From Pristiophorus japonicus (taxonomy: Eukaryota), in NCBI RefSeq assembly GCF_044704955.1, contig NW_027254394.1, positions 186,001 through 250,000 of the forward strand: DNA of 64,000 bases. Direction: 5' to 3'. The notes under the pieces are model-generated. The model was not told the DNA's origin, made no database searches, and saw only the letters and a list, made by a program, of their open reading frames with translations. Below, in pieces: positions 8,083 to 56,930 of the stretch (position 1 is the stretch's first letter; each line of letters starts with the position of its first letter). A program made the position numbers and the translations under genes.

Positions 8083-9114
8083 TACCTTGGGGGTAATATA
8101 TTAGTATGGATAGAGGATTGGCTAATGAACAGAAAACAGAGAGTTGGGATAAATGGTTCAGTCTCGGGTTGGCAATCAGTAATTAATGGGGTGCTGTCGG
8201 GTTCAGTGCTGGGACCCCAACTATTTACAATCTAGTTTAACGACTTGGAAGAAGGGACTGAGTGTAACGGAGCCAAGTTTGCTGATGATACAAAGATGGG
8301 AGGAAAAGCAATGTGTGAGGAGGACACAAAAAATCTGCAAAAGGACATAGACAGGCTAAGTGAGTGGGCAAACATTTGGCAGATGGATTATAATGTTGGA
8401 AAGTGTGAGGTCATGCACTTTGGCAGAAAAAAAATCAAAGAGCAAGTTCTTATTTAAATGGAGTAAGATTGCGAAGTGCTGCAGTACAGCGGGACCTGGG
8501 GGAACTTGTGCATGAAATACAAAAGGATAGTATGTAGGTACAGCAAGTGATCAGCAACTCCAATGTAATCTTGGCCTTTATTGCAAAAGGGATGGAGCAT
8601 AAAAGCAGGGAAGTCTTGCAACAGTTATACAGAGTATTGGTGAGGCCACACCTGGAATACTGCGTGCAGTTTTGGTTTCCATATTTACGAACGGTTATAC
8701 TTGCTTTGGAGGAAATTTAGAGAAGGTTCACTCGGTTGATTCCGGAGGTGAGGGGGTTGACTTATGAGCAAAGGTTGAGTAGGTTGGGCCTCTACTCATT
8801 GGAATTCAGAGGCGATCTTATCGAAACGTATAAGATTATGAGGGGGCTTGACAAAGTGAGGATGTTTCTACTGATAGGGGAGACTAGAACTAGAGGGCAT
8901 GATAGTAGAATAAGGGGCCGCGCATTTAAAACTGAGATGAGAAATTTCTTCTCTGAGGGTTGTGAATCTGTGGAATTCGCTGCCTCAGAGAGCTGTGGAA
9001 TCTGGGACATTGAATAAATTTAAGACCATGATCTGATCAGCCATGATCGTATTAAATGGCAGAGCAGGCTCGAGGGGCCGTATGGCCAACTCCTGCTCCT
9101 ATTTCTTATGTTCC
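8083..9114 (+). mobile_element. CR1 LINE 3' fragment inserted in the minisatellite
   Basis: RT C-terminus (KFADDTKMGG, LGLYSLEF) and CR1 3' tail ...cctatttcttatgttc. Confidence 0.9.
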
Positions 9115-11047
9115 CTGACCCCACTCCGCCCCGCTCGTGATGGTCACTCCTCCCTGCCCCCACTCCGCCCCTCCAGTGATGGTCACTCCTCCCTGCCCCC
9201 ACTCCGCCCCTCCAGTGATGGTCACTCCTCCCCGCCCCTCCAGTGATGGTCACTCCTCCATGCCCCCACTCAGCCCCTCCAGTGATGGTCACTCCTCTCT
9301 GCCCCCACTCCACCCCTCCAATGACGGTCACTCCTCCCTGCCCCCACTCCATCCCTCTAGTGATGGTCACTCCTCCCTGCCCCCACTCCGCCCCGCTAGT
9401 GATGGTCACTCCTCCCTGCCCCCATTCCGCCCCTTCAGTGATGGTCACTCCTCCCTGCCCCCACTCCACCCCGCTAGTGATGGTCACTCCTCCCTGCCCC
9501 CACTCCGCCCCTCCAGTGATGGTCACTCCTCCCTGCCCCCACTCCGCCCCGCTAGTGATGGTCACTCCTCCCTGCCCCCACTCCGCCCCTCCAGTGATGG
9601 TCACTCTTCCCTGCCCCCACTCCGCCCCGCTAGTGATGGTCACTCCTCCCCGCCCCCACTCCCACCCTCCAGTGATGGTCACTCCTCCCCGCCCCTCCAG
9701 TGATGGTCACTCCTCCCCGTCCCCACTCCACCCCTCCAGTGATGGTCACTCCTCCCTGCCCCCACTCCACCCCTCCAGTGATGGTCACTCCTCCCTGCCC
9801 CCACTCCGCCCCTCCAGTGATGGTCACTCTTCCCTGCCCCCACTCCGCCCCGCTAGTGATGGTCACTCCTCCCCGCCCCTCCAGTGATGGTCACTCTCCC
9901 CTGCCCCCACTCCGCCCCTCCAGTGATGGTCACTCTTCCCTGCCCCCACTCCGCCCCGCTAGTGATGGTCACTCCTCCCTGCCCCCACTCCGCCCCTCCA
10001 GTGATGGTCACTCTTCCCTGCCCCCACTCCGCCCCGCTAGTGATGGTCCCTCCTCCCCGCCCCCACTCCCAACCTCCAGTGATGGTCACTCCTCCCCGCC
10101 CTTCCAGTGATGGTCACTCCTCCCCGTCCCCACTCCACCCCTCCAATGATGGTCACTCCTCCCTGCCCCCACTCCACCCCTCCAGTGATGGTCACTCCCC
10201 CCTGCCCCCACTCTGCCCCTCCAGTGATGGTCACTCCTCCCTGCCCCCACTCCGCCCCGCTAGTGATGGTCACTCCCCCCTGCCCCCACTCCGCTCCGCT
10301 AGTGATGGTCACTCCTCCCTGCCCCCACTCCGCCCCGCTAGTGATGGTCACTCACCCCTGCCCCCACTCCGCCCCGCTAGTGATGGTCACTCCTCCCTGC
10401 CCCCACTCTGCCCCTCCAGTGATGGTCACTCCCCCCTGCCCCCACTCCGCCCCGCTAGTGATGGTCACTCCTCCCTGCCCCCACTCCACCCCTCCAGTGA
10501 TGGTCACTCCCCCCTGCCCCCACTCTGCCCCTCCAGTGATGGTCACTCCTCCCTGCCCCCACTCCGCCCTGCTAGTGATGGTCACTCCTCCCTGCCCCCA
10601 CTCCACCCCTCCAGTGATGGTCACTCCTCCCTGCCCCCACTCCGCCCCGCTAGTGATGGTCACTCCTCCCTGCCCCCACTCTGCCCCTCCAGTGATGGTC
10701 ACTCCTCCCTGCCCCCACTCCACCCCTCCAGTGATGGTCACTCCTCCCTGCCCCCACTCCGCCCCGCTAGTGATGGTCACTCCTCCCTGCCCCCACTCCA
10801 CCCCTCCAGTGATGGTCACTCCCCCCTGCCCCCACTCTGCCCCTCCAGTGATGGTCACTCCTCCCTGCCCCCACTCCGCCCCGCTAGTGATGGTCACTCC
10901 TCCCTGCCCCCACTCCACCCCTCCAGTGATGGTCACTCCCCCCTGCCCCCACTCTGCCCCTCCAGTGATGGTCACTCCTCCCTGCCCCCACTCCGCCCCG
11001 CTAGTGATGGTCACTCCACCCTGCCCCCACTCCGCCCCGCTAGTGAT
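9115..11047. repeat. 39-bp minisatellite AGTGATGGTCACTCCTCCCTGCCCCCACTCCGCCCCTCC
   Basis: Tandem copies; the 13-aa periodicity in the ORF track matches a 39-bp unit. Confidence 0.95.
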
Positions 11048-11297
11048 GCCCACTGTGCCCCGATGATGAGGCCACTTGAGCCCCACTCCAAAAGACGGCA
11101 CCAAGTGCTGAATTTCTCCGGTTTACCCGCCCCGTCCATTGGGGCAGCCAGAACACATTGAAAACAGGACAAGAAAGAAAAGAAAGGCTTATTGGGTTTG
11201 GATGAAGACAACTCTTTGGCCCACTTGGACTCATCCCTCCAGAACACCAGCCCTCATGCCCCATCCAGCTGTGGCCTGGGAAAACATTCCAGCTGTT

Positions 11298-12902: not shown

Positions 12903-14960
12903 TCCCAGTGGTGTATGTGGGTCTCACTATCTATCCTGAGACAGGGTCCCAGTGGTGTGTGTGGGTCTCTCTATCCTGAGACAGGGTCCCAGTGGTGTGT
13001 GTGGGTCTCACTATCTATCCTGAGACAGGGTCCCAGTGGTGTGTGTGGGTCTCTCTATCCTGAGACAGGGTCCCAGTGGTGTATGTGGGTCTCACTATCT
13101 ATCCTGAGACAGGGTCCCAGTGGTGTGTGTGGGTCTCACTATCTATCCTGAGACAGGGTCCCAGTGGTGTGTGTGGGTCTCTCTATCCTGAGACAGGGTC
13201 CCAGTGGTGTGTGTGGGTCTCACTATCTATCCTGAGACAGGGTCCCAGTGGTGTGTGTGGGTCTCACTATCTATCCTGAGACAGGGTCCCAGTGGTGTGT
13301 GTGGGTCTCACTATCTATCCTGAAACAGGGTCCCAGTGGTGTGTGTGGGTCCCACTATCTATCCTGAGACAGGGTCCCAGTGGTGTGTGTGGGTCTCACT
13401 ATCTATCCTGAGACAGGGTCCCAGTGGTGTATGTGGGTCTCACTATCTATCCTGAGACAGGGTCCCAGTGGTGTGTGTGGGTCTCACTATCTATCCTGAG
13501 ACAGGGTCCCAGTGAGTGTGTGTGGGTCCCACTATCTATCCTGAGACAGGGTCCCAGTGGTGTGTGTGGGTCTCACTATCTATCCTGAGACAGGGTCCCA
13601 GTGGTGTGTGTGGGTCTCTCTATCCTGAGACAGGGTCCCAGTGGTGTATGTGGGTCTCACTATCTATCCTGAGACAGGGTCCCAGTGGTGTATGTGGGTC
13701 TCACTATCTATCCTGAGACAGGGTCCCAGTGGTGTGTTTGGGTCTCACTGTCCTGAGACAGGGTCCCAGTGGTGTGTGTGGGTCTCACTATCTATCCTGA
13801 GACAGGGTCCCAGTGGTGTGTGTGGGTCCCACTATCTATCCTGAGACAGGGTCCCAGTGGTGTGTGTGGGTCTTACTATCTATCCTGAGACAGGGTCCCA
13901 GTGGTGTGTGTGGGTCTCACTATCTATCCTGAGACAGGGTCCCAGTGGTGTGTGTGGGTCTCACTATCTATCCTGAGACAGGGTCCCAGTGGTGTGTGTG
14001 GGTCCCACTATCTATCCTGAGACAGGGTCCCAGTGGTGTGTGTGGTTCCCACTATCTATCCTGAGACAGGGTCCCAGTGGTGTATGTGGGTCTCACTATC
14101 TATCCTGAGACAGGGTCCCAGTGGTGTATGTGGGTCTCACTATCTATCCTGAGATAGGGTCCCAGTGGTGTGTGTGGGTCCCACTATCTATCCTGAGACA
14201 GGGTCCCAGTGGTGTGTGTGGGTCCCACTATCTATCCTGAGACAGGGTCCCAGTGGTGTATGTGGGTCTCACTATCTATCCTGAGACAGGGTCCCAGTGG
14301 TGTATGTGGGTCCCACTATCTATCATGAGACAGGGTCCCAGTGGTGTGTGTGGGTCTCTCTATCTATCCTGAGACAGGGTCCCAGTGGTGTGTGTGGGTC
14401 TCACTATCTATCCTGAGACAGGGTCCCAGTGGTGTGTGTGGGTCTCACTATCTATCCTGAGACAGGGTCCCAGTGGTGTGTGTGGGTCTCACTATCTATC
14501 CTGAGACAGGGTCCCAGTGGTGTGTGTGGGTCTCACTATCTATCCTGAGACAGGGTCACAGTGGTGTGTGTGGGTCTCACTATCTATCCTGAGACAGGGT
14601 CCCAGTGGTGTGTGTGGGTCCCACTATCTATCCTGAGACAGGGTCCCAGTGGTGTGTGTGGGTCTCACTATCTATCCTGAGACAGGGTCCCAGTGGTGTG
14701 TGTGGGTCCCACTATCTATCCTGAGACAGGGTCCCAGTGGTGTGTGTGGGTCTCACTATCTATCCTGAGACAGGGTCCCAGTGGTGTGTGTGGGTCTCAC
14801 TATCTATCCTGAGACAGGGTCCCAGTGGTGTGTGTGGGTCTCACTATCTATCCTGAGACAGGGTCCCTGTGGTGTATGAGGGTCTCACTATCTCTCCTGA
14901 GACAGGGTCCCAGTGGTGTATGTGGGTCTCACTATCTATCCTGAGACAGGGTCCCAGTGG
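12903..14960. repeat. 44-bp minisatellite CCCAGTGGTGTGTGTGGGTCTCACTATCTATCCTGAGACAGGGT (about 47 copies, some 37-bp variants)
   Basis: Tandem copies without unique spacers. Confidence 0.96.
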
Positions 14961-16039: not shown

Positions 16040-19000
16040 GGCGGGAGGGGGGGAGGGGATTACTGGTGGGAGGGAGGGGAGGGGGGGGGAATTACTGGCG
16101 GGAGGTGGGGGGGGGAGGGGGATTACTGGCGGGAGGGAGGGGGGGGGGGAATTACTGGCGGGAGGTGGGGGGGGGGAGGGGGATTACTGGCGGGAGGGGG
16201 ATTACTGGCGGGAGGGGGATTACTGGCGGAGGGTGGGGGGGGGAAAGGGGGGGAGGGGGATTACTGGCGGAGGAAGGGAGGGAAGTGGATTACTGGCGGG
16301 AGTGGAGGGAGGGAGCGGGATTACTGGCGGGAGGGAGGGAGGGAGGGGGATTATTGGCGGAGGGAGGGAGGGAGAGGGATTACTGGTGGAGGGATGGAGG
16401 AAGGGGGATTACTGGCGGAGGGAGGGAGGGGGGAGGGGGATTATTGGCGGAGGGAGGGAGGGAGGTAGATTATTGGCGGAGGGAGGGAGGGAGGGAGATT
16501 ACTGGCGGAAGGAGGGAGAGGAATTACTGGCGGAGGGAGGGGGAGGGGGATTACTGGTGGAGGGAGGTAGGCATGGGGATTACTGGCGGAGGGAGGGGGG
16601 AGGGGGATTATTGGTGGAGGGAGGGAGGGGAATCACTGGCGGAGGGAGGGAGGGAGATTACTGGCGGAAGGAGGGAGAGGGATTACTGGCGGAGGGAGGG
16701 GGAGGGGGATTACTGGTGGAGGGAGGTAGGCAGGGGGATTACTGGCGGAGGGAGGGAGGGGGAGGGAGATTATTGGCGGAGGGAGGGGGAGGGGGATTAC
16801 TGGCGGAGGGAGGGAGGGGGGAGGGGGATTACTGGCGGAGGGAGGGAGGGGGGAGCGGGATTACTGGCGGAGGGATGGAGGGAGGGTGATTACTGACAGG
16901 AGGGAGGGAGGGAGGGAGTGGGATTACTGGCGGAGGGAGGGAGGGAGTGAGATTACTGGCGGTGCAAGGGAGGGAGCGGGATTAGTGGCGGAGGGAGGGA
17001 GGGGGGGAGGGGGATTACTGGCAGAGGGAGGGAGGGGGAATACTGGCAGAGGGAGGGAGGGGAATTACTGGCGGAGGGAGAGAGGGAGGGAGCGGGATTA
17101 CTGGTGGAGGGAGGGAGGGGGATTATTGGTGGAGGGAAGGAGAGGGATTATTGGCAGAGGGAGGGAGGGGGGGGATTATTGGCGGAGAGAGGGAGGGAGG
17201 GAGGGAGATTACTGGCGGAGGGAGGGGGATTACTGGCGGAGGGAGGGGGAGGGGGATTATTGGCGGAGGGAGGGGGAGGGTGATTACTGGTGGAGGGAGG
17301 GAGGGGGAGGGGGATTACTGGCGGAGGGATGGAGGGAGGGTGATTACTGGCAGGAGGGAGTGAGGGAGAGGGCGGGATTACTGGCGGAGGGAGGAAGGGG
17401 GGAGGGGGATTACTGGCAGAGGGAGGGAGGGAAATTACTGACAGAGGGAGGGAGGGAGAGAGGGGGATTACTGGCAGGAGGGAGGAAGGGAGTGGGATTA
17501 CTGGCGGAGGGAGGGAGGGGGGGAGGGGGATTACTGGCGGAGGGAGGGAGAGGGAATACTGACAGAGGGAGGGGAGGGAGGGGGATTACTGGAAGAGGGA
17601 AGGAGGGAGGGAGCGGGATTACTGGCGGAGGGAGGGAGGGAGGGGGATTACTGGCAGAGGGAGGGAGGGAGGGTGATTACTGGCGGAGGGAGGGAGAATA
17701 CTGGCAGGAGGAAGGGAGGGAGTCGGATTACTGGCGGAGAGAGGGAGGGAGGGGGTTTACGGAGGGAGGGAGGGAGGGGGTTTACGGAGGGAGGGAGGGA
17801 GGGGAATACGGAGGGAGGGAGGGAGGGAGGGAGGGGGGATTACTGGCGGAGGGAGGGAGGTAGGGAGATTACTGGCGGAGGGAGGGAGCGGGGAGGGAGA
17901 TTACTGGTGGAGGGAGGGAGGGAGGTGGATTATTGGCGGAGGGAGGGAGGGAGAGGGATTACTGGTGGAGGGAAGGAGGGAGGGAGGGGGATGACTGGCG
18001 GAGGGAGGGAGGGGGATTACTGGTGGAGGGAGGAGGGGAGGGGGATTACTGCCGGAGCAGGGGAGGGGGATTACTGGCAGAGGGAGGGAGGGGGATTACT
18101 GGCGGAGGGAGGGAGATTACTGGCAGAGGGAGGGAGATTACTGGCAGAGGGAGGGAGGGAGTGGGTTTACTGGCAGAGGAAGGGAGGGGGATTACTGGCG
18201 GAGGGAGGGAGGGGGATTACTGGCAGAGGGAGGGAGGGAGATTACTGGCGGAGGGAGGGAGATTACTGGCAGAGGGAGGGAGGGAGTGGGTTTACTGGCA
18301 GAGGAAGGGAGGGGGATTACTGGCGGAGGGAGGAGGGGAGGGGGATTACTGGCAGAGGGAGGGAGGGAGATTACTGGCGGAGGGATGGAGGGAGCGGGTT
18401 TACTGGCAGAGGGAGGGAGGGGGATTACTGGCGGAGGGAGGAGGGGAGGGGGATTACTGGCAGAGGGAGAGAGGGAGGGGATTTACTGGCAGAGGGAGGG
18501 AGGGGGATTACTGCCGGAGGTAGGGGGGGAGGGGGATTACTGGCAGAGGGAGGGAGAATACTGGCAGGTGGAAGGGAGGGAGGGGGATTACTGGCGGAGA
18601 GAGGGAGGGAGGGGGTTTACGGAGGGAGGGAGGGAGGGGGTTTATGGAGGGAGGGAGGGAGGGGGTATACGGAGGGAGGGAGGGAGGGAGGGGGGATTAC
18701 TGGCGGAGGGAGGGAGGTAGGGAGATTACTGGCGGAGGGAGGGAGCGGGGAGGGAGATTACTGGTGGAGGGAGGGAGGGAGGGGGATTACTGGCGGAGGG
18801 AGGGAGGGAGGGGGATTACTGGCGGAAGGAGGGGGAGGGGTATTACTGGCGGAGGGAGGGAGGGGGATTACTGGCGGAGGGAGGAGGATTATTGGCGGAG
18901 GGAGGGAGAGAGGGGGATTACTGGCGGAAGGAGGGGGAGGGGGATTACTGGCGGAGGGAGGGTGGGAGGGGGATTACTGGCGGAGGGAGGGAGAGAGGGG

Positions 19001-19815
19001 GATTACTGGCGGAGGGAGGGAGAGAGGGGGATTACTGGCGGAGGGAGGGAGGGAGGGGGATTACTGGCGGAGGGAGGGAGAGAGGGGGATTACTGGCGGA
19101 AGGAGGGAGGGAGGGGGATTACTGGCGGAGGGAGGGAGAGAGGGGGATTACTGGCGGAGGGAGGGAGGGAGGGGGATTACTGGCGGAAGGAGGGGGAGGG
19201 GGATTACTGGCGGAGGGAGGGAGGGGGATTACTGGCGGAGGGAGGGGGATTATTGGCGGAGGGAGGGAGAGAGGGGGATTACTGGCGGAAGGAGGGGGAG
19301 GGGGATTACTGGCGGAGGGAGGGAGGGAGGGGGTTACTGGCGGAGGGAGGGAGAGAGGGGGATTACTGGCGGAGGGAGGGAGAGAGGGGGATTACTGGCG
19401 GAGGGAGGGAGGGAGGGGGATTACTGGCGGAGGGAGGGAGAGAGGGGGATTACTGGCGGAAGGAGGGAGGGAGGGGGATTACTGGCGGAGGGAGGGAGAG
19501 AGGGGGATTACTGGCGGAAGGAGGGGGAGGGGGATTACTGGCGGAGGGAGGGAGGGAGGGAGATTACTGGCGGAGGGAGGGAGGGAGGGAGATTACTGGC
19601 GGAGGGAGGGGGATTATTGGCGGAGGGAGGGAGAGAGGGGGATTACTGGTGGAGGGAAGGAGGGAGGGAGGGGGATGACTCGCGGAGGGAGGGAGGGGGA
19701 TTACTGGCGGAGGGACGAGGGGAGGGGGATTACTGGCGGAGAGAGGGTGGGAAGGGGATTACTGGCGGAGGGGGATTACTGGCGGAGGGAGGGAGGGAGG
19801 GAGCGGGATTACTGG
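16040..19815. repeat. Purine/G-rich degenerate tandem repeat (GGGATTACTGGCGG + (GGGA)n)
   Basis: About 3.8 kb of variable-length units sharing the core GATTACTGGCGGAGGG. Confidence 0.95.
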
Positions 19816-20597: not shown

Positions 20598-21600
20598 TAA
20601 GAACATAAGAACATAAGAATTAGGAACAGGAGTAGGCCATCTAGCCCCTCGAGCCTGCTCCGCCATTCAACAAGATCATGGCTGAGCCAGATCGAGCCAG
20701 TTCTATCTCCATGCTAATACATTTCCTCTGACTCCGCGTACCTTTATCTTCTGCAGTCACCTTTTGTGTGGCACCTTATCGAATGCCTTTTGGAAATCTA
20801 AATATACCACAACCATCGGTACACCTTTATCCACCATGCTCGTTATATCCTCAAAGAATTCCAGTAAATTAGTTAAACATGATTTCCCCTTCATGAATCC
20901 ATGCTGCGCCTGCTTGATTGCACTATTCCTATCTAGATGTCCCGCTATTTCTTCCTTAATGATAGTTTCAAGCATTTTTCCCACTACAGATGTTAAACTA
21001 ATCGGCCTATAGTTTCCTGCCTTTTGTCTGCCCCCTTTTTTAAACAGAGGCGTTACATTAGCTGTTTTCCAATCCGCTGGTACCTCCCCAGAGTCCAGAG
21101 AATTTTGGTAGATTATAACGAATGCATCTGCTATAACTTCCAACATCTCTTTTAATACCCTGGGATGCATTTCATCAGGGCCAGGGGACTTGTCTACCTT
21201 GAGTCCCATTAGCCTGTCCAGCACTACCCCCCTAGTGTTAGTGATTGTCTCAAGGTCCTCCCTTCCCACATTCCCGTGACCAGCAATTTTTGGCATAGTT
21301 TTTGTGTCTTCCACTGTGAAGACCGAAACAAAATAATTGTTTAAGGTCTCAGCCATTTCCACATTTCCCATTATTAAATCCCCCTTCTCATCTTCGAAGG
21401 GACCAACATTTACTTTAGTCACTCTTTTCCGTTTTATATATCGGTAAAAGCTTTTACTATCTGTTTTTATGTTTTGCGCAAGTTTACCTTCGTAATCTAT
21501 CTTTCCTTTCTTTATTGCTTTCTTCGTTATTCTTTGCTGTCGTTTAATATTTTCCCAATCTTCTAGTTTCCCACTAACCTTGGCCACCTTATACGCATTG
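20598..21600 (-). mobile_element. CR1 LINE fragments (ORF2 RT N-terminal region plus 3' tail)
   Basis: ORF 20757-21644 (KSPGPDEMHPRVLKE, NYRPISLTS, QHGFMKGKSCLTNL, LDFQKAFDKV) is nearly identical to 54950-55800. Confidence 0.92.
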
Positions 21601-22198
21601 GTGGCCAAGGTTAGTGGGAAACTAGTAGATTGGGAAACACACAAAGGGTTTCACAGAGACAATCCCTTTGAACAAAACCCAGCCTCGTGTCGGGTGCCCA
21701 CACACACCGATAATCTGCGGCACCTGCTCCTGACCCTTCCAGCAGCTCACCGTCCCTCTGCCTGCACAATAAGGTGCGACTTAACAGGAGAGAGGAGGCC
21801 GGGACAGGAGGGCCCACAGACAAAACCCCGAGAGCCTTTGGAGGGGAGCCGCTTGGAAATGATTGTGCCTGGGAGCAGAGGGATTGGGACAGGCTGAAGC
21901 CGGAGGCTTCGCCCTCACTCAGGGACAGGAGCACCTTACGTTATCCCTTCTCTCCCTACTGACATCCTGACCCACCATCACCCAGGGTCCAGTCACACCC
22001 AGCGGGCTCAGAGTATTCCCACCGCAGTAATAGTCACAATGTCATTGGGACCCCGATTGCCATTTCGGGTGGGAGCGGGCAGGAGCCTGGGCTGTGCTCA
22101 CACCGACCCGACCCGACCCACGGGCCATGGAACGACAGATTTAAATGAGGCCGGTGGCTCACAATCGCAGGGAGGAGGGGGAGCTCGGCACCACTGGA

Positions 22199-23137
22199 AC
22201 GGTCACCTGACCATCGCTCCCCCAGTCAGTCACCTGACCATCACTCCCCCAGTCAGTCACCTGACCATCACTCCCCCAGTCAGTCACCTGACCATCACTC
22301 CCTTAGTCGGTCACCTGACCATCACTCCCCCAGTCAGTCACCTGACCATCGCTCTCCCAGTCAGTCACCTGACCATCACTCCCTTAGTCGGTCACCTGAC
22401 CATCACTCCCCCAGTCAGTCACGTGACCATCGCTCCCCCAGTCAGTCACCTGACCATCACTCCCCCAGTCAGTCACCTGACCATCGCTCCCCCAGTCAGT
22501 CACCTGACCATCACTCCCCCAGTCAGTCACCTGACCATCACTCCCCCAGTCAGTCACCTGACCATCACTCCCCCAGTCAGTCACCTGACCATCACTCCCC
22601 CAGTCAGTCACCTGACCATCGCTCCCCCAGTCAGTCACCTGACCATCACTCCCCCAGTCAGTCACCTGACCATCGCTCCCCCAGTCAGTCACCTGACCAT
22701 CACTCCCCCAGTCAGTCACCTGATCATCGCTCCCCCAGTCAGTCACCTGACCATCACTCCCTCAGTCAGTCACCTGACCATCACTCCCCCAGTCAGTCAC
22801 CTGACCATCGCTCCCCCAGTCAGTCACCTGACCATCACTCCCCCAGTCAGTCACCTGACCATCGCTCCCCCAGTCAGTCACCTGACCATCACTCCCCCAG
22901 TCAGTCACCTGACCATCCCCACCCCCAGTCAGTCACCTGACCATCGCTCCCCCAGTCAGTCACCTGACCATCACTCCCCCAGTCAGTCACCTGACCATCG
23001 CTCCCCCAGTCAGTCACCTGACCATTCCCCCCCCCCCCAGTCAGTCACCTGACCATCGCTCCCCCAGTCAGTCACCTGACCATCACTCCCTCAGTCAGTC
23101 ACCTGACCATCACTCCCTCAGTCGGTCATCTGACCAT
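22199..23137. repeat. 27-bp minisatellite GTCACCTGACCATCACTCCCCCAGTCA
   Basis: About 34 tandem copies. Confidence 0.95.
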
Positions 23138-41096: not shown

Positions 41097-44000
41097 CAGC
41101 ATAAATATCAGTGAATGTTTCTGTACAACAACTTCACACTGGCACTGCTGTGAGCATAAATATCAGTGAATGTTTCTGTACAACTTTACACTGGCACTGC
41201 TGTGAGCATAAATATCAGTGAATGTTTCTGTACAACAACTTCACACTGGCACTGCTGTGAGTATAAATATCAGTGAATGTTTCTGTACAACTTCACACTG
41301 GCACTGCTGTGAGCAAAATATCAGTGAATGTTTCTGTACAACAACTTCACACTGGCACTGCTGTGAGCATAAATATCAGTGAATGTTTTTGTCCAACAAC
41401 TTCACACTGGCACTGCTGTGAGCATAAATATCAGTGAATGTTTCTGTCCAACAACTTCACACTGGCACTGCTGTGAGCATAAATATCAGTGAATGTTTCT
41501 GTCCAACAACTTCACACTGGCACTGCTGTGAGTATAAATATCAGTGAATGTTTCTGTACAACAACTTCACACTGGCACTGCTGTGAGCATAAATATCAGT
41601 GAATGTTTCTGTAGATCAACTTCACACTGGCACTGCTGTGAGCATAAATATCAGTGAATGTTTCTGTACAATTTCATACTGGCACTGCTGTGAGCATAAA
41701 TATCAGTGAATGTTTCTGTAGATCAACTTCACACTGGCACTGCTGTGAGCATAAATATCAGTGAATGTTTCTGTACAACTTCACACTGGCACTGCTGTGA
41801 GCATAAATATCAGTGAATGTTTCTGTACAACTTCACACTGGCACTGCTGTGAGTATAAATATCAGTGAATGTTTCTGTACAACTTCACACTGGCACTGCT
41901 GTGAGCATAAATATCAGTGAATGTTTCTGTACAACAACTTCACACTGGCACTGCTGTGAGCATAAATATCAGTGAATGTCTCTGTACAACTTCACACTGG
42001 CACTGCTATGAGCATAAATATCAGTGAATGTTTCTGTACAACTTCACACTGGCACTGCTGTGAGCATAAATATCAGTGAATGTTTCTGTACAACAACTTC
42101 ACACTGGCACTGCTGTGAGCATAAATATCAGTGAATGTTTCTGTACAACTTCACACTGGCACTGCTGTGAGCATAAATATCAGTGAATGTTTCTGTACAA
42201 CTTCACACTGGCACTGCTGTGAGCATAAATATCAGTGAATGTTTCTGTACAACTTCACACTGGCACTGCTGTGAGCATAAATATCAGTGAATGTTTCTGT
42301 ACAACAACTTCACACTGGCACTGCTGTGAGCATAAATATCAGTGAATGTTTCTGTACAACTTCACACTGGCACTGCTGTGAGCATAAATATCAGTGAATG
42401 TTTCTGTACAACTTCACACTGGCACTGCTGTGAGCATAAATATCAGTGAATGTTTCTGTACAACTTCACACTGGCACTGCTGTGAGCATAAATATCAGTG
42501 AATGTTTCTGTACAACTTCACACTGGCACTGCTGTGAGCATAAATATCAGTGAATGTTTCTGTACAACAACTTCACACTGGCACTGCTGTGAGCATAAAT
42601 ATCAGTGAATGTTTCTGTACAACTTCACACTGGCACTGCTGTGAGCATAAATATCAGTGAATGTTTCTGTACAACAACTTCACACTGGCACTGCTTTGAG
42701 CATAAATATCAGTGAATGTTTCTGTACAACTTCACACTGGCACTGCTGTGAGTATAAATATCAGTGAATGTTTCTGTACAACTTCACACTGGCACTGCTG
42801 TGAGCATAAATATCAGTGAATGTTTCTGTACAACTTCACACTGGCACTGCTGTGAGCATAAATATCAGTGAATGTTTCTGTACAACTTCACACTGGCACT
42901 GCTGTGAGCATAAATATCAGTGAATGTCTCTGTACAACTTCACACTGGCACTGCTGTGAGCATAAATATCAGTGAATGTTTCTGTACAACTTCACACTGG
43001 CACTGCTGTGAGCATAAATATCAGTGAATGTTTCTGTACAACTTCACACTGGCACTGCTGTGAGCATAAATATCAGTGAATGTTTCTGTACAACAACTTC
43101 ACACTGGCACTGCTGTGAGCATAAATATCAGTGAATGTTTCTGTACAACTTCACACTGGCACTGCTGTGAGCATAAATATCAATGAATGTCTCTGTACAA
43201 CTTCACACTGGCACTGCTGTGAGCATAAATATCAGTGAATGTTTCTGTACAACTTCACACTGGCACTGCTGTGAGCATAAATATCAGTGAATGTTTCTGT
43301 ACAACTTCACACTGGCACTGCTGTGAGCATAAATATCAGTGAATGTTTCTGTACAACTTCACACTGGGACTGCTGTGAGCATAAATATCAGTGAATGTTT
43401 CTGTACAACTTCACACTGGGACTGCTGTGAGCATAAATATCAGTGAATGTTTCTGTACAACTTCACACTGGCACTGCTGTGAGTATAAATATCAGTGAAT
43501 GTCTCTGTACAACTTCACACTGGCACTGCTGTGAGCATAAATATCAGTGAATGTCTCTGTACAACTTCACACTGGCACTGCTGTGAGCATAAATATCAGT
43601 GAATGTTTCTGTACAACAACTTCACACTGGCACTGCTGTGAGCATAAATATCAGTGAATGTTTCTGTACAACAACTTCACACTGGCACTGCTGTGAGCAT
43701 AAATATCAGTGAATGTTTCTGTACAACAACTTCACACTGGCACTGCTGTGAGCATAAATATCAGTGAATGTCTCTGTACAACTTCACACTGGCACTGCTG
43801 TGAGCATAAATATCAGTGAATATTTCTGTACAACAACTTCACACTGGCACTGCTGTGAGCATAAATATCAGTGAATGTTTCTGTACAACAACTTCACACT
43901 GGCACTGCTGTGAGCATAAATATCAGTGAATGTCTCTGTACAACTTCACACTGGCACTGCTGTGAGCATAAATATCAGTGAATGTTTCTGTACAACAACT

Positions 44001-45756
44001 TCACACTGGCACTGCTGTGAGCATAAATATCAGTGAATGTCTCTGTACAACTTCACACTGGCACTGCTGTGAGCATAAATATCAGTGAATGTCTCTGTAC
44101 AACTTCACACTGGCACTGCTGTGAGCATAAATATCAGTGAATGTTTCTGTACAACTTCACACTGGCACTGCTGTGAGCATAAATATCAGTGAATGTTTCT
44201 GTACAACAACTTCACACTGGCACTGCTGTGAGCATAAATATCAGTGAATGTCTCTGTACAACTTCACACTGGCACTGCTGTGAGCATAAATATCAGTGAA
44301 TGTTTCTGTACAACTTCACACTGGCACTGCTGTGAGCATAAATATCAGTGAATGTTTCTGTACAACTTCACACTGGGACTGCTGTGAGCATAAATATCAG
44401 TGAATGTTTCTGTACAACTTCACACTGGGACTGCTGTGAGCATAAATATCAGTGAATGTCTCTGTACAACTTCACACTGGCACTGCTGTGAGCATAAATA
44501 TCAGTGAATGTCTCTGTACAACTTCACACTGGCACTGCTGTGAGCATAAATATCAGTGAATGTTTCTGTACAACTTCACACTGGCACTGCTGTGAGCATA
44601 AATATCAGTGAATGTTTCTGTACAACAACTTCACACTGGCACTGCTGTGAGCATAAATATCAGTGAATGTCTCTGTACAACTTCACACTGGCACTGCTGT
44701 GAGCATAAATATCAGTGAATGTCTCTGTACAACTTCACACTGGCACTGCTGTGAGCATAAATATCAGTGAATGTCTCTGTACAACTTCACACTGGCACTG
44801 CTGTGAGCATAAATATCAGTGAATGTCTCTGTACAACAACTTCACACTGACACTGCTGTGAGCATAAATATCAGTGAATGTCTCTGTACAACTTCACACT
44901 GGCACTGCTGTGAGCATAAATATCAGTGAATGTTTCTGTACAACTTCACACTGGCACTGCTGTGAGCATAAATATCAGTGAATGTTTCTGTACAACTTCA
45001 CACTGGCACTGCTGTGAGCATAAATATCAGTGAATGTTTCTGTACAACAACTTCACACTGGCACTGCTGTGAGCATAAATATCAGTGAATGTCTCTGTAC
45101 AACTTCACACTGGCACTGCTGTGAGCATAAATATCAGTGAATGTTCCTGTACAACTTCACACTGGCACTGCTGTGAGCATAAATATCAGTGAATGTCTCT
45201 GTACAACAACTTCACACTGGCACTGCTGTGAGCATAAATATCAGTGAATGTTCCTGTACAACTTCACACTGGCACTGCTGTGAGCATAAATATCAGTGAA
45301 TGTTTCTGTACAACAACTTCACACTGGCACTGCTGTGAGCATAAATATCAGTGAATGTTTCTGTACAACTTCACACTGGCACTGCTGTGAGCATAAATAT
45401 CAGTGAATGTTTCTGTACAACTTCACACTGGCACTGCTGTGAGCATAAATATCAGTGAATGTCTCTGTACAACTTCACACTGGGACTGCTGTGAGCATAA
45501 ATATCAGTGAATGTTTCTGTACAACTTCACACTGGCACTGCTGTGAGCATAAATATCAGTGAATGTCTCTGTACAACTTCACACTGGCACTGCTGTGAGC
45601 ATAAATATCAGTGAATGTTTCTGTACAACTTCACACTGGCACTGCTGTGAGCATAAATATCAGTGAATGTTTCTGTACAACTTCACACTGGCACTGCTGT
45701 GAGCATAAATATCAGTGAATGTCTCTGTACAACTTCACACTGGGACTGCTGTGAGC
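41097..45756. repeat. 52/55-bp minisatellite GCATAAATATCAGTGAATGTTTCTGTACAA(CAA)CTTCACACTGGCACTGCTGTGA (roughly 85-90 copies)
   Basis: Highly homogeneous tandem array with no spacers. Confidence 0.97.
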
Positions 45757-45879
45757 AGGAAAGAGCACAGAAGCTTCAAAGAACGTCTCTCTCTTAAAAT
45801 GAAATTCTGCACAAGTCATGACCGTTTGGTTGATGTTCGATCGACTCCTGATTGAAGTGGGTTATGTTTGTCTCCTATA

Positions 45880-46510: not shown

Positions 46511-46514
46511 ATGA

Positions 46515-47200
46515 ACACAAGAACATAAGAAATAGGAGCAGGAGTAGGCCATACAACCCCTCGAGCCTGCTCCGCCATTTAATATGATCATGGCTGATCC
46601 GATCATGGACTCAGGTCCACTTCCCTGTCCGTTCCCCATAACCCCTTATGCCCTTATCAGTTAAGAAACTGTCTATCTCTGTCTTAAATATATTCAATGC
46701 CCCAGCTTCCACAGCTCTCTGAGGCAGCGAATTCCACAGATTTACAACCCTCTGAGGGAAGAAATTCCTCCTCATCTCAGTTTTAAATGGGCCGTCCCTT
46801 ATACTAAGATTATGCCTCCTAGTTCTCGTCTCCTGTATCAGTGGAAACATCCTCTCTGCATCCACCTTGTCATAGAAAAACATAGAAACATAGAAAATAG
46901 GTGCAAGAGTAGGCCATTCGGCCCTTCGAGCCTGCACCACCATTCAATGAGTTCATGGCTGAACATGCAACTTCATAACCCCATTCCTGCTTTCTTGCCA
47001 TACCCCTTGATCCCCCTAGTAGTAAGGACTACATCTAACTCCTTTTTGAATATATTTAGTGAATTGGCCTCAACAACTTTCTGTGGTAGAGAATTCCACA
47101 GGTTCACCACTCTCTGGGTGAAGAAACTTCTCCTCATCTCGGTCCTAAATGGCTTACCCCTTATCCTTAGACTGTGGCTTACCCCTTATCCTTAGACTAT
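46515..47200 (-). mobile_element. Two stacked CR1 3' fragments
   Basis: RNFFPQRVVNLWNSLP, and CR1 tails (aagaacat / catagaaa repeats). Confidence 0.88.
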
Positions 47201-47540
47201 GCCTAAGAAAGGCAGAGAGAAATTTGTACATGATCTACATAGCACTCATCCCGGTATTGTCATGATGAAAGCCATTGCCAGGTCTCATGTATGATGACCT
47301 GGAATTGACTCTGATCTGGAATCATGTGTGCATCAGTGCAACACTTGTATGCAGCTAATTAAAGCATCAGCGAAATCGCCGCTGAGTCTGTGGTTGTGGC
47401 CATCTAAACCATGGTCCAGGATCCACATTGACTTTGCAGGTCTCTTCCTGGGAAAGATGTTTTTAGTTGTGGTGGATGCATATTCCAAGTGGATATGGTG
47501 TATAATCATGTCATCCAGTACATCCACAGCTACCATTGAA
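47200..47540 (+). mobile_element. Gypsy integrase fragment
   Basis: HQCNTCMQL...PSKPWSRIHIDFAGLFLGKMFLVVVDAYSKW. Confidence 0.88.
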
Positions 47541-48415
47541 ACATAGAAACATAGAAAATAGGTGCAGGAGAAGGCCATTCGGCCCCTCGAGCCCGTACTG
47601 CCATTCAACGAGTTCATGGCCGAAAATGCAACTCCAGCACCCCACTCCCGCTCCCCCGCCACACCCCCCAATCCTCCCAGTAGCGAGGACCACATCTAAC
47701 TCCTTCCCGAACACATTTAGTGAATTGGCCTCAAAAACTTTCCGTGGTAGAGAATTCCACAGGTCCACCACCCCCCGGGCGAAGAAGTTTCCCCCCCATC
47801 TCGGCCCCAAATGGCCCACCCCCATCCCTAGACCGTGACCCCCGGTCCCGGACCCCACTAACACCAGGAACATCCCTCCCGCATCCAACCTGTCCAAACC
47901 CGCCAGAACCCGAAACATTTCCATGAGATCCCCTCTCACTCCTCCGAACTCCAGCGAATACAAGCCCAGTCGATCCAGCTCCCCCCCCTCACCCAGACAC
48001 GTCAGTCCCACCATCCCGGGAATCAATCCGGTGAACCCTCGCTGTACCCTCTCAACAGCAAGAGTGTCCCCCCTCAAGTCAGGAGACCAAAACTGCACAC
48101 AACACTCCAGGCACAGCCTCACCAGGGCCCTGCACAACCGCAGCAACACCTCCCCAACCCTGCACTCAAATCCCCCCGCCATAAAGGCCAACACGCCACC
48201 CGCCCTCCCAACCGCCTGCCGTACCTGCATGCCAACCCCCAGTGACCGATGTCCCATGACACCCAGGTCTCGTTGCACCTCCCCTTTTCCTAATCTGTCA
48301 CCATTCAGATAATAGTCTGTCTCTCTGTTTTTACCACCAAAGTGGATAACCTCACATTTATCCACATTATACTTCATCTGCCATGCATTTGCCCACTTAC
48401 CTAACCTATCCAAGT
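47540..48415 (-). mobile_element. CR1 3' fragment with A>G hypermutation
   Basis: RT C-terminus in which K/N/Y/E/I codons are replaced by G/D/C/V codons; dense T>C on the + strand relative to sister copies. Confidence 0.9.
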
Positions 48416-48419
48416 TCAC

Positions 48420-49560
48420 AGCAGCCCACCAAACTGTGCTCCAGCAAATTGTTGGGGATGTTGAGGTGCTGCCCCGGGGGAGTGGCACTGGGTCAGTGGA
48501 GCAGGAACCTGCTGTCCTTTCTCAGTATGACAGCTATCCTGATCCCACCACTGCCACTCCGCCATTGCACTTGTCGCTGGCCGTCATCCAGCCAGCCCAG
48601 ACTGCTGCTGCCCAGCCTGAGGTGGTGGAGTCTACAGCCGAGCCTTCCAGGCCCAGAGCTGGTCGAGGGTGTCCTGCAAGGCCTTCTGTAGTATCTGGCC
48701 CTGACACGCAGCAGTCTTCCACCAGCCGTGCCTCAGCGGAGGAACGCTAGACTAGTTAAAGCAAAAAGGGGATAGAAGGAAATGCACAAGGGTGATTAGT
48801 AAATATATTATGTTATTCTGATATAAATTTGGATTGGAATTTTTAATCTTTGCTGTTGTCTCTCATTTCAGTTTTGGGGCTTTGGAATGGAAGGGAAAAT
48901 GGATGTGGTCATGGGGACGTCCAAAGGAACCGGGAAGTGGGATGGAACTCTGATGAGACGGTCACGGATCTTAGAATCTTATACGTATCGAAACGATCAC
49001 CTCTCATTCTTCTGAATGCCAATGAGTAGAGGCCCAACCTGTGATGCAGACAGTTTCCATCTGACAGTGCAGAATTAGGTATTAGCAGGCAATAGGCTGG
49101 GCCGCTGTGGTAGTTGAGTTAGTGCAGAGGTCTATGTTGGTAAGGGTGTATTGGGCCAGTGTATTTTGTAGATGGGGTCAGGACTAGAAAAGCATTGGTG
49201 CATCTTGGAGATGAATGATCCCGGTGACTGCGTGCATCATGTTGTGTCTTTGATCCCGCTTGTCACAATGATGTCAGGAACCAGAGCTCAGAGGATAGCC
49301 TTTGTCTCTCAGGAGCCATGATCCCAGTCTGCCTTCTCCTTGAAAGAGTTTAGGCACAGTGGACGGTCTTAAAATGGAGGGATCAGAACATTCACCGCAT
49401 GATGAGCTGGTCACTGAACTGCACATTGAGGGGGTTAGAAACCCCTGGAGTTCAGGAAGACTGTGGTGTAATGTGTAGGGTCCAAAGTGGGCACGGATAC
49501 CAACAACAATGCCTTGGACTTTGGCGAATCCTGTGATATGGAATAATTCCAATGCAGTGC
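48420..49560. mobile_element. PIF/Harbinger transposon remnant
   Basis: Minus ORF 49274-49552 GFAKVQG...DPSILRPSTVPKLF...WLLRDKGYPL resembles HARBI1-type DDE motifs (GFPxVQG, HDAFIL, LLGDKGYPL). The convergent P/S/T-rich ORF end at 48436-48750 may be the second Harbinger gene. Confidence 0.65.
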
Positions 49561-50779: not shown

Positions 50780-50957
50780 CTGTAAAATATCAAAAGGTGA
50801 CGTATAGTTCAATAGCAGTAAGGTGAATCGAGTAAAGACTCGGATTCCTGTCCTTCAGAAAACCAGGTTTAATATAAGCACAACCGAGACAGAGAGCTCC
50901 CCCTCGGTATAACATTAAAACCAGGTTTAATATAAGCACAACCGTTAAGTTCCCTCA

Positions 50958-51493
50958 GTAACCTTTTCCTGCTTTCTCTCCATACCCCTTGATCTCTTTA
51001 GCCGTAAAGGCCATATCTAACTCCCTCTTGAATATATCCAATGAACTGGCATCAACAACTCTCTTTGGCAGGGAATTCCACAGGTTAACTACTCTCTGAG
51101 TGAAGAAGTTTCTCTTCATCTCAGTCCTAAATGGCCTACCCCTTATCCTAAGATTATGTCCCCTGGTTCTGGACTTCCCCAACATCGAGAACATTCTTCC
51201 CACATCTAACCTGTCCAGTCCCGTCAGAATCTTATAAGTCTCTATGAGATCCCCTCTCATCCTTCTAAACTCCAGTGAATTAAGGTCCAGTTGATCCAGT
51301 CTCTCCTCAAATGTCAGTCCAGCCATCCCTGGAATCAGTCTGGTGAACCTTCGCTGCACTCCCTCAATAGCAAGAATGTCCTTCCTCAGATTAGGAGACC
51401 AAAACTGAACACAATATTCCAGGTGATGCCTCACCAAGGCCCTGTACAACTGCAGTAAGACCTCCCTGCTCCGATAATCAAATCCTCTAGCTA
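50958..51493 (-). mobile_element. CR1 3' fragment (unedited)
   Basis: YRALVRHHLEYCVQFWSPNLRKDILAIEGVQRRFTRLIPG. Confidence 0.9.
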
Positions 51494-51496
51494 TGC

Positions 51497-53719: not shown

Positions 53720-56700
53720 TGTGGATAAGAACATAAGAAGTTACGGACATTGGAACAGGTTCTGGGGGAGGTGGGACCAGTACAAACCGGACGGTCTGCA
53801 CCTAGGCAGGACCGGAACCAATGTCCTGGGGGGAGTGTTTGCTCGTGCTGTTGGGGAGGAGTTAAACTAATATGGCGGGGGATGGGAACCAATGCAGGGA
53901 GACAGAGGGAAACAAAAAGGAGACAAAAGCAAAAGACAGAAAGGAGATGAGTAAAAGTGGAGGGCAGAGAAATCCAAGGCAAAAAACAAAAAGGGCCACT
54001 GAATATAAAGGGGCTGGAGGAAGGGTCAAAACTAAAAATCATGCTTTAAAAACTAGTCTTAAAACAGTCTACCTAAAAGCACGCGGCATTCGAAATAAAG
54101 TAAATGAGTTGACGGCACAAATCATTACAAATGGGTATGATTTGGTGGCCAATACAGAAATGTGGTTGCAAGACCAAGACTGGGAATTAAACATACAGGG
54201 GTATCTGGCGATTCGGAAAGATAGACAAGAAGGGAAAGGAGGTGGGGTAGCTCTGTTAATAAAGGATGATATCAGGGCAGTTGTGAGAGACGATATTGGC
54301 TCTAATGAACAAAATGTTGAATCATTGTGGGTGGAGATTAGAGATAGTAAGGGGAAAAAGTCACTTATAGGCCCCCAAATAATAACTTCACGGTGGGGCG
54401 GGCAATAATCAAGGGAATAATGGAGGCATGTGAAAAAGGAATAGCAGTAATCATGGGGGGGATTTTAACCTACTGATCGATTGGTCAAATCAAATCGCAC
54501 GGGGTAGCCTGGAGGAGGAATTCATAGAATGCATATGGGATTGTTTCTGAGAACAGTATGATACAGAACCTACAAGGGAGCAAGCTATCTTAGATCTGGT
54601 CCTGTGTAATGAGACAGGAATAATAAATGATCTCCTCATAAAAGATCCTCGCGGAACGAGTGATCACAGTATGGTTGAATTTGTAATACAGATTGAGGGT
54701 GAGGAAGTAGTGTCTCAAACGAGCGTACTATGCTTAAACAAAGGGGACTACAGTGGGATGAGGGCAGAGTTGGCTAAAGTAGACTGGAAACACAGACTAA
54801 ATGGTGGCACAATTGAGGAACAGTGGAGGACTTTTAAGGAGCTCTTTCATAGTGCTCAACAAAAATATATTCCAGTGAAAAAGAAGGGCGGTAAGAGAAG
54901 GGATAACCAGCCGTGGATAACCAAGGAAATAAAGGAGAGTATCAAATTAAAAACCAATGCGTATAAGGTGGCCAAGGTTAGTGGGAAACTAGAAGATTGG
55001 GAAAATTTTAAACGACAGCAAAGAATGACTAAGAAAGCAATAAAGAAAGGAAAGATAGATTACGAAGGTAAACTTGCGCAAAACATAAAAACGGATAGTA
55101 AAAGCTTTTACAGATATATAAAATGGAAAAGAGTGACAAAAGTAAATGCTGGTCCCTTAGAAGATGAGAAGGGGGATTTAATAATGGGAAATGTGGAAAT
55201 GGCTGAGACTTTAAATAATTATTTTGCTTCGGTCTTCACAGTGGAAGACACAAAAACCATGCCAAAAATTGCTGGTCACGGGAATGTGGGAAGGGAGGCC
55301 TTGAGACAATCACTATCACTAGGGGGGTAGTGCTGGACAGGCGAATGGGACTCAAGGTAGACAAGTCCCCTGGTCCTGATGAAATGCATCCCAGGGTATT
55401 AAAAGAGATGGCGGAAGTTATAGCAGATACATTCGTTATAATCTACCAAAATTCTCTGGACTCTGGGGAGGTACCAGCGGATTGGAAAGCAGCTAATGTA
55501 ACGCCTCTGTTTAAAAAAGGGGGCAGACAAAAGGCAGGTAACTATAGGCTGGTTAGTTTAACATTTGTAGTGGGAAAATGCTTGAAACTATCATTCAGGA
55601 AGAAATAGCGGGACATCTAGATAGGAATAGTGCAATCAAGCAGACGCAGCATGGATTCATGAAGGGGAAATCATGTTTAACTAATTTACTGGAATTCTTT
55701 GAGGATATAACGAGCATGGTGGATAGAGGTGTACCGATGGATGTGGTGTATTTAGATTTTCAAAAGGCATTCGATAAGGTGCAACACAAAAGGTTACTGT
55801 AGAAGATAAAAGTACGCGGAGTGAGATGAAATGTATGAGCATGGATCGAGAATTGGCTGGCTAACAGAAAGCAGAGAGTCGAGATAAATGGGTCCTTTTC
55901 AGGTTGGAAATCGGTGTTAGTGGTGTGCCACAGGGATCGGTGCTGGGACCACAACTGTTTACAATATACACAGATGACCTGGAAGAGAGGACAGAGTGCA
56001 GTGTAACAAAATTTGCAGATGACACAAAGATTAGTGGGAAAGCGGTTGTGTCGAGAACACAGAGAGGCTGCAAAGAAATTTAGATAGGTTAAGCAAATGG
56101 GCTAAGCTTTGGCAGATGGAATACAATGTCGGAAAGTGTGAGGTCATCCACCTTGGGAACAAAAACAGTAAAAGGGAATATTATTTGAATGGGGAGAAAT
56201 TACAACATGCTGTTAGGCAGAGGGACTTGGGGGTCCTTGTGCATGGATCCCAAAAAGTTAGTTTGCAGGTGCAGCAGGTAATCAGGAAGGCGAATGGAAT
56301 GTTGGCCTTCATTGCGAGAGGGATGGAGTACAAAAGCAGGGAGGTCCTTTTGCAACTGTATAGGGTATTGGTGAGGCCGCACCTGGAGTACTGCGTGCAG
56401 TTTTGGTCACCTTACTAAAGGAAGGATTTACTAGCTTGAAGCGGGTACAGAGGCTGATTCCGGAGATGAGGGGGTTACCTGATGATGATAGATTGAGTAG
56501 AGTGGGTCTTTACTCGTTGGAGTTCAGAAGGATGAGGGGTGATCTTATTAGAAACATTTAAAATAATGAAAGGGATAGACAAGATAGAGGCAGAGAGGTT
56601 CGGGGAGACTTGTACTAGGGGGCACAGCCTCAAAATATGGGGGAGCAAATTTAAAACCGAGTTGAGAAGGAATTTCTTCTCCCAGAGGGTTGTGAATCTG

Positions 56701-56930
56701 TGGAATTCTCTGCCCAAGGAAGCAGTTGAGGCTAGCTCATTGAATGTATTCAAGTCACAGATGGATAGATTTTTAACCAATAAGGGAATTAAGGGTTATG
56801 GGGAGCGGGCGGGTAAGTGGAGCTGAGTCCACGGCCAGATCAGCCATGATCTTGTTGAATGGCGGAGCAGGCTCGAGGGGCTAGATGGCCTACTCCTGTT
56901 CCTAATTCTTATGTTCTTCTGTTCTTATGT
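53720..56930 (+). mobile_element. Long CR1 LINE copy (ORF2 endonuclease + RT, frameshifted) with 3' tail
   Basis: APE motifs (ARGIRNK, TEMWL, GKGGGVALLIK), RT motifs (KSPGPDEMHPRVLKE, LDFQKAFDKV, FADDTK) and tail ttcttatgttctt. Confidence 0.94.

Follow-up and report, generated by a model that had tools for sequence, protein, structure and literature searches.

Editing by ADAR is seen as altering RNA without being passed on to offspring. Among the closest described systems are retroviral ones: A>G change at approximately 50% has been described in avian retroviruses (Rous-associated virus as well as avian leukosis virus; PMC12925331), and A>G clusters occur in integrated proviruses of BLV (PMC8025556), according to the available parts of both reports. 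At the level of RNA, 3′ fragments of chicken CR1 are heavily hyper-edited, and 200,171 hyper-edited sites have been listed for the elephant shark, in the accessible text of PMC5625713. Two observations, each from the available portion of its source, point in the opposite direction, namely that L1 RNA was not edited by ADAR1 in HeLa cells (PMC5224506), and that 52,039 bp of new Alu inserts in cell culture contained no editing (PMC3415434).

For genomic DNA, the accessible part of PMC4866542 describes an APOBEC screen that covered LTR elements and DNA transposons and was filtered for G-to-A over A-to-G changes, and the corresponding part of PMC7186786 considers G alleles that occur at edited sites to be mutations that were selected, rather than retrocopied edits. 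No published case of an A>G-hyperedited LINE copy fixed in a genome was found among the titles and abstract openings listed from the open-access literature. Here, we describe a LINE copy of this kind in a very repeat-dense window (the whole stretch of 64,000 nucleotides that was analysed), which contains four N gaps. We consider it very probable that an ADAR-hyperedited LINE RNA was reverse-transcribed into germline DNA and then modestly amplified, ADAR and a dsRNA partner being the presumed agents.

An A>G tract on the sense strand of a LINE copy

The element that carries the tract (Table 1) reads as a 5′-truncated LINE copy with an intact 3′ microsatellite tail, and we take it to be CR1 from its C-terminal motifs and tail. 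Its protein homologs come from cartilaginous fish (skate, rays and bamboo shark), with 60-69% identity in the top matches; 23 homologs of the fragment were found among 957 candidates, and RVT_1 lay upstream in all three that were scanned. Pfam gave no match in the edited fragment, in a sister fragment or in three ORF pieces of the long copy in the window. CR1 family contigs extend as LINE sequence behind position 48415, where the window departs from the LINE. BLAST of the window identified sister copies at 46878-47176, 50956-51494, 56077-56923 and 8345-8999, as well as shorter ones; the 50956-51494 sister is 71% identical to the edited copy, and 88% identical once T and C are merged.

Table 1. 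Features of the edited LINE copy, its reference sisters and its flanks, in window coordinates
Feature	Position	Strand	Basis or detail
Hyper-edited tract	47594..48247	-	Sense A to G at 92/182; closest-sister polarity
5′-truncated CR1-type LINE copy: ORF2 C-terminal end, 3′ UTR, microsatellite tail	47540..48415	-	Sequence, homologs
Unedited 3′ end: two AACATAGA tandem units (+ strand), GGCC-GAAU-GGCC hairpin	47540..47593	-	
Unedited 5′ part, same as main family	48248..48415	-	
+1 base in C-run 47791-47797, -1 base in C-run 47819-47823	47791..47823	-	Sister alignments
9-base insertion relative to sisters, within C-rich run	47977..47998	-	Alignments to 50956 and 56923 copies
Closest unedited sister, polarity reference	46878..47176	-	15 non-T>C differences in 300 columns
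Second unedited sister, polarity reference	50956..51494	-	80 T>C vs 14 C>T
Left flank: decayed integrase fragment of Gypsy type, insertion target	47200..47539	+	Weak rve match
Right flank: different multicopy repeat	48416..48750	.	Many contigs align from 48419 on

Closest-sister polarity was taken per column and called 626 of the 654 tract columns, the remainder being gaps or disagreement. On the + strand, T>C was found at 92/182 sites, against A>G at 13/161, C>T at 10/187, G>A at 11/96 and 10 transversions of T. The bias is pronounced both between strands (92/182 vs 13/161, P=8e-19) and in direction (92 vs 10, P=9e-18), and the edited strand is the sense strand of the LINE. Majority polarity from eight sisters gave T>C at 75/154 over 47587-48258, and all eight sister alignments of the edited copy showed the same T>C lean in or near the tract. 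The columns of the closest sister contain 37 T>C, compared with one T>A and one T>G, and include uninterrupted T>C runs of 9, 6, 6 and 8. An earlier note on this DNA had counted roughly 35 T>C differences against about a dozen of all other types, and the recount over 47582-47837 agrees with it (37 of 78 T, plus 12 others, in 255 columns).

Comparisons of unedited sisters with each other behaved differently from those with the edited copy: six pairs were symmetric, for example with 30 T>C vs 30 C>T (15 pairs run). When 94 repeat pairs from the window, with tandem repeats masked, were ranked by asymmetry, the top five all included the edited copy (P=2e-12 to 3e-5), the next reaching P=5e-4, and the nine 300-base segments with the lowest T/(T+C) all lie within it. 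Neither the 94-pair test nor the listed matches of a noisy three-letter BLAST contained a second edited copy in the window. Sense A/(A+G) is 0.24, whereas the lowest value in the 80 distant relatives is 0.35 and their mean is 0.55; these relatives are metagenome loci with 29-58% amino-acid identity, too distant to polarise bases and used for comparison of composition only. An exact 30-base pattern from the tract had no matches in metagenome contigs.

The first robust T>C lies at 47594 and the last at about 48246-48247. A change-point fit, made with noisy polarity, placed the dense part between 47621/47634 and 48246, so that the 3′ edge of the tract tapers. The earlier note had let the bias stop near 48270, approximately 20 bases too far; the portion beyond, normal in its reading, is unedited, the T content being 0.33 in 48248-48415 vs 0.145 in the tract. 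At the other end, comparison with the closest sister over 47536-47581 showed none of seven T changed, and the T>C at 47587 is also present in the 56923 copy. The hairpin in the 3′ end was identified by reading of the letters; folding of the 3′ 101 bases, 47540-47640, gave weak z-scores (-1.8 and -1.6), and a structural reason for the spared tail is accordingly not claimed.

The two single-base indels constitute a compensating frameshift inside runs that the edits themselves had made. No stop interrupts the reading frame of the edited copy, which is what would be predicted for A>G changes, as these are unable to generate stop codons. The peptides that the earlier note had singled out are present in the minus-strand frame of the edited copy (VGRAGGVLAF, ECCVQFW and GGCGGGAG), and so are their unedited counterparts in sisters, with IRKANGMLAF in the copy at 56050, and EYCVQFW and KGYGEKAG in the copy at 50940.

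The bases next to the changed sites bear on the enzyme. ADAR prefers 5′ neighbours in the order U>A>C>G. The changed fraction of sense A in the tract was 22/27 after U, 21/35 after C, 20/39 after A and 24/61 after G; it was 42/63 before G and 45/99 before the other bases. A>G on the sense strand dominates and a 5′ G is disfavoured (24/62 vs 65/105, P=0.004; P=0.005 with majority polarity), the latter in line with the ADAR bias given in the earlier note; a 3′ G is enriched (42/64 vs 47/106, P=0.008; P=0.016-0.039 under three other polarities). Unedited control pairs, which are not mutually independent, lacked this bias, the changed fraction being 0.18 for a 5′ U, 0.18 for a 5′ G and 0.17 for a 3′ G. 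Three details count against ADAR: the 5′ G test on the short closest sister alone gave 8/21 vs 27/52 (P=0.31), sites with a 5′ G are nonetheless 39% changed, and 5′ A does not rank above 5′ C, unlike in the order given above. The bias found is that of the published ADAR motif, in which G is depleted upstream and enriched downstream of the edited A, in the available text of PMC3197674 and PMC5625713.

Changes in the tract are spread over the three codon positions (26/42, 17/36 and 14/22, P=0.33), whereas differences between sisters sit mostly at position 3 (55/104 vs 28/105 and 16/106). At conserved residues, defined from the nine best outside homologs, A>G alone accounts for 29 of 45 changes in the tract vs one of five outside it, and an unedited sister has two to five such changes per homolog. 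The derived residues of the tract occur in none of these nine homologs, and at most two occur in the other 14. The tract is accordingly a single burst of change, limited to one strand, that selection has not filtered.

The bias does not extend into the left flank, where comparison with four window paralogs gave 5-9 T>C and 19-24 C>T, with no T>C excess. The rve match in this flank (E=0.0018, 18.9 bits) is under the curated cut-off of 32.6. The right flank, 48416-48750, had no paralog in the window and no Pfam match. Target-site duplications are often short or missing in the CR1 clade, and none was found here; the flanks are different repeats, and the longest word common to the surroundings of the two junctions, of 6 bases, was not accepted as a duplication, as it does not adjoin the left junction and is at chance level. 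The missing duplication and the discontinuous flanks mean that the insertion event is not cleanly preserved, a point against our preferred reading.

The neighbourhood contains several further repeats. Within 5 kb, four CR1 3′ ends share one orientation (46514-46871, 46878-47176, 47540-48415 and 50956-51494); the first two abut, with the tail of the 46878 copy at the truncated end of the 46514 copy, and the 46878 copy terminates in a 25-base tandem duplication (47150-47198). A long, near-complete, frameshifted LINE copy on the + strand occupies 53866-56923 (ORF pieces of 180, 259, 129 and 127 aa); it is inverted relative to the edited copy and just 63% identical to it. Segments of a decayed Gypsy-type LTR family, 64-81% identical, are found at 472-4384, 4510-5905, 28161-31108, 35142-39088 and 47200-47539. 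A 110-codon, low-complexity open frame without Pfam match lies on the + strand of the right flank (48418-48750). Minisatellites occupy 41098-45757 (52 bp x 88), 12903-14960 (44 bp x 47), 9112-11048 (39 bp x 51), 16246-19772 (29 bp x 126) and 22202-23137 (27 bp x 35).

Presence in genomic DNA and copy number

Words from the tract were found in seven runs, four of which (X1-X4, from one sample) hold 49-63% of them. X1-X4 are probably DNA, their kind being guessed, and may represent the assembly's own sample; the data are contigs, not reads. X1, X3, X5 and X6 were compared at 98% likeness, and X2 and X4 at 80% only, with X1 sampled 72 in 100. At 80% likeness in X1-X4, the family pool has T nearly everywhere that the window has C, for example in 241,121 of 241,543 at 47874. 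At 98% likeness, X1 contigs with zero to two differences cover 47587-47741, 47806-47930, 47949-48081, 48083-48155 and 48164-48282, and X3 contigs cover 47858-47976, 47949-48110 and 48082-48193. Contigs of 73-162 bases thus match the tract with zero to two differences in two runs, and the contigs listed at 98% or more cover at least 590 of the 654 tract bases and 83 of the 92 edited sites. Differences among the listed tract contigs are A>C at three sites and G>A at one, with no C>T. The edited tract is therefore present in genomic DNA and is not an assembly error; the C alleles, for which the earlier note had looked to raw DNA, are carried by contigs of the probable DNA runs X1 and X3.

The small indels are also found in these contigs. 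The 9-base insertion is contained in those at 47949-48081 (X1) and 47949-48110 (X3), with no differences and no gaps, and the X1 contig at 47806-47930 is gap-free across the lost base of the C-run 47819-47823, which indicates that this loss is common to the amplified copies. None of the listed contigs bridged a junction or crossed the whole stretch, the window's A at 47625 was in no contig at 98%, and two intervals, 47610-47714 and 48205-48239, were uncovered in X3. Three positions, 47625, 47857 and 48157, separate the window from the deep edited contigs. Relative to the family, the window copy has C>A at 47625, 47735, 47857 and 48157, oddly all of one type, and these differences are either later mutations or errors.

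Two runs from other samples, X5 and X6, had cover at 98% in 26/30 and 16/30 bins, respectively, with no long tract piece among those listed. CR1 cover was deep in both, and the Gypsy flank reached 5.5 and 0, compared with 27,133 in X1; with the flank nearly absent, they are probably not plain genomic runs. X5 had low cover at 98% in every bin of 47715-48239, which may represent transcribed edited copies or freshly edited RNA.

Depth of the tract contigs was 89-205 in X1 and 93-96 in X3. As a single-locus baseline, we used the eight long contigs of the right-flank repeat listed per run, which are probably single loci (median depth 13.4 in X1 and 11.5 in X3). The ratio of tract to baseline is 6.6-15.3 in X1 and 8.1-8.4 in X3, so that, by depth, the edited copy exists as approximately 7-15 (roughly ten) near-identical copies, or about half that number if the baseline is heterozygous depth. 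The uniqueness of the edited copy that the earlier note had implied is thus contradicted. X3 splits at 47850/47857 into sub-haplotypes, one with a depth of 29 and one of 40. The copies share the indels at 47821 and 47990, and form a small near-identical family from one edited molecule. Total depth in X1 over 47811-47861 was 1,713, vs about 13 per locus, which rules out a thousand copies with this pattern.

A pattern shared by many genomic copies was, in the earlier note, the mark of an independent GC-rich subfamily. Roughly ten copies do share it; however, the window allele, with a depth of 322-440 at three sites, makes up 0.2-0.6% of the family pool there, the 5′ 168 bases are those of the main family (summed contig depth in X1 at 98% likeness was 2-5 million over 48275-48379), and conserved residues have been lost. 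The shared pattern reflects amplification after editing, and not an independent GC-rich subfamily. Renewed retrotransposition and duplication of a segment are about equally plausible as the route of this amplification.

Loose ends of contigs hint at a second, independently edited CR1 copy in the DNA of the same sample, over a few dozen bases. One X1 contig joins the window from 47794, its earlier letters being different: compared by eye with the two closest sisters, these 30 letters have T>C at 5 of 10 sites and no other change, agreeing with the window at 1 of 10 T sites, and X3 has the last 11 of them. Another X1 loose end, at 47823, is without the one-base loss and has one additional T>C. 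It is quite possible, though we would stop short of calling it probable, that ADAR-edited LINE RNAs were repeatedly written into the germline of this lineage and that several independent founders spread by retrotransposition, the present copy belonging to a young family of about ten copies within approximately 1% and the contigs containing another edited molecule.

A mechanism and its rivals

The earlier note had proposed that a hyperedited LINE RNA was retrotransposed, and this proposal is supported by the strand, the purity of the changes, their level of approximately 50%, the neighbour bias and the indifference to codon position. Our data are compatible with the following sequence of events. 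A transcript with the CR1 3′ end in sense would form a duplex of approximately 650 bases with a second copy, either inverted or antisense; most CR1 copies being 3′ fragments, inverted neighbours pair readily (PMC5625713). ADAR would then deaminate about half of the A's in the duplex, with A's that follow G spared and A's that precede G preferred, as the signature suggests, while the unpaired 5′ 168 bases and last 54 bases would escape. The intact 3′ tail would let the ORF2 protein prime reverse transcription, during which I would pair with C and the genome would gain G, with small indels in the new G-runs perhaps arising by slippage of the reverse transcriptase. Lastly, the edited insertion would have multiplied about tenfold.

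A>G in sense orientation places the change on the RNA, ahead of its copying; had the cDNA been deaminated, the mirror change would be expected. In the accessible part of PMC6007223, recognition of the element's own 3′ end is presumed for LINEs other than L1, and this end is intact in the edited copy. The window also contains an inverted pair of LINE ORF2 segments (20695-21602 and 54953-55858, separated by 33 kb and with 95% identity across 908 bases), a young duplicate that could be a source of dsRNA if co-transcribed.

Taken together, the rival explanations retain a modest share of the probability. An adenine deaminase, whether ADAR or another, might have edited the DNA strand of an RNA:DNA hybrid, at insertion or in a later R-loop. 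ADARs can edit the DNA strand of hybrids (via PMC12925331, in its available part), and a similar neighbour bias would be expected. However, the DNA of a target-primed hybrid is antisense cDNA, and its editing would appear as sense T>C, seen at only 13/161; an R-loop in place would depend on antisense transcription and on unrepaired conversion at 50%, and leaves the sparing of both flanks and both ends of the element unexplained. We regard editing of DNA as improbable, and an error of the polymerase as marginally more so. In this reading, a reverse transcriptase starved of dTTP would have placed C opposite A, or an enzyme of the Pol eta type, a version that was tested and rejected, would have resynthesised the stretch. 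Nucleotide imbalance would also yield A>G on the sense strand only, and the indels in runs point to a slipping enzyme, yet clean ends of 54 and 168 bases flank a tract changed at 50%, the 5′ G deficit and 3′ G excess are significant, 45 of 89 changes do not fall in the WA motif, and transversions do not exceed background.

The explanations in terms of base composition are largely refuted already, and we give them very little credence. A pattern shared by about ten copies, and the 22 of 92 changes that make CpG, would be explained by a GC-rich CR1 subfamily of independent origin, by gene conversion biased towards GC, or by CpG retained where the sisters decayed. These processes are strand-symmetric, yet + strand A>G is found at only 13/161, and the other 70 of the 92 changes make no CpG; nor do they fit the lack of third-position bias with loss of conserved residues, the rarity of the C allele in the family depth (0.2-0.6% at three sites) or a sense A/(A+G) below that of all 80 distant relatives. 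APOBEC editing was rejected, sense G>A (C>T on the + strand) amounting to only 10/187. Least probable of all is a sequencing or assembly artefact: the window is rich in repeats and has gaps, neither the whole stretch nor a junction is crossed by any listed contig, and a few sites set the window copy apart from the deep contigs, but contigs of 73-162 bases with zero to two differences and depths of 89-205 recur in two runs with no C>T listed, and four runs hold 49-63% of the tract words.

Significance and comparison with known systems

The presence of 92 A>G changes in the DNA of a LINE copy would mean that heavily edited RNA can complete retrotransposition in the germline. Edited LINE fossils could then serve for dating and mapping the activity of ADAR, and dsRNA, in the germ cells of species beyond laboratory study, and whether editing restricts or diversifies LINEs would become countable from assemblies alone. 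Such fossils lose their coding capacity without stop codons, and can seed G-rich repeats. If repeated founders prove true, A-to-I editing would repeatedly give rise to new non-autonomous retroposon families and would leave, in heritable form, a record of dsRNA in the germline.

Judged against the available parts of the literature cited here, retroviral DNA tracts and APOBEC scars in LTR elements were known before; what appears new is an ADAR-type tract in a genomic LINE copy, apparently amplified. As with ADAR hyper-editing of inverted repeats in RNA (PMC5625713, PMC3197674 and PMC4365171, in their accessible text), the class of substrate, the density and the neighbour motif agree, whereas in those cases the edits are in RNA and the DNA is unedited, and in the LINE copy the edits are in the DNA. 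The APOBEC-edited LTR retrotransposons of PMC4866542, as far as its available part describes them, likewise carry fixed deaminase scars in the genome that are strand-biased, clustered and marked by a neighbour motif; APOBEC leaves sense G>A, made on cDNA, whereas the sense A>G of the LINE copy points to RNA.

The resemblance to ADAR-type hypermutation of retroviruses, in the accessible parts of the reports cited at the outset, extends to a cluster of A>G on one strand, a level near 50% of A's, confinement to a segment and fixation by reverse transcription. Unlike the retroviral cases, the edited copy is a non-LTR element of the animal's own genome, present in assembled genomic DNA and apparently amplified, and its tract extends over 654 bases, compared with approximately 70 in the BLV proviruses described in the available text of PMC8025556.
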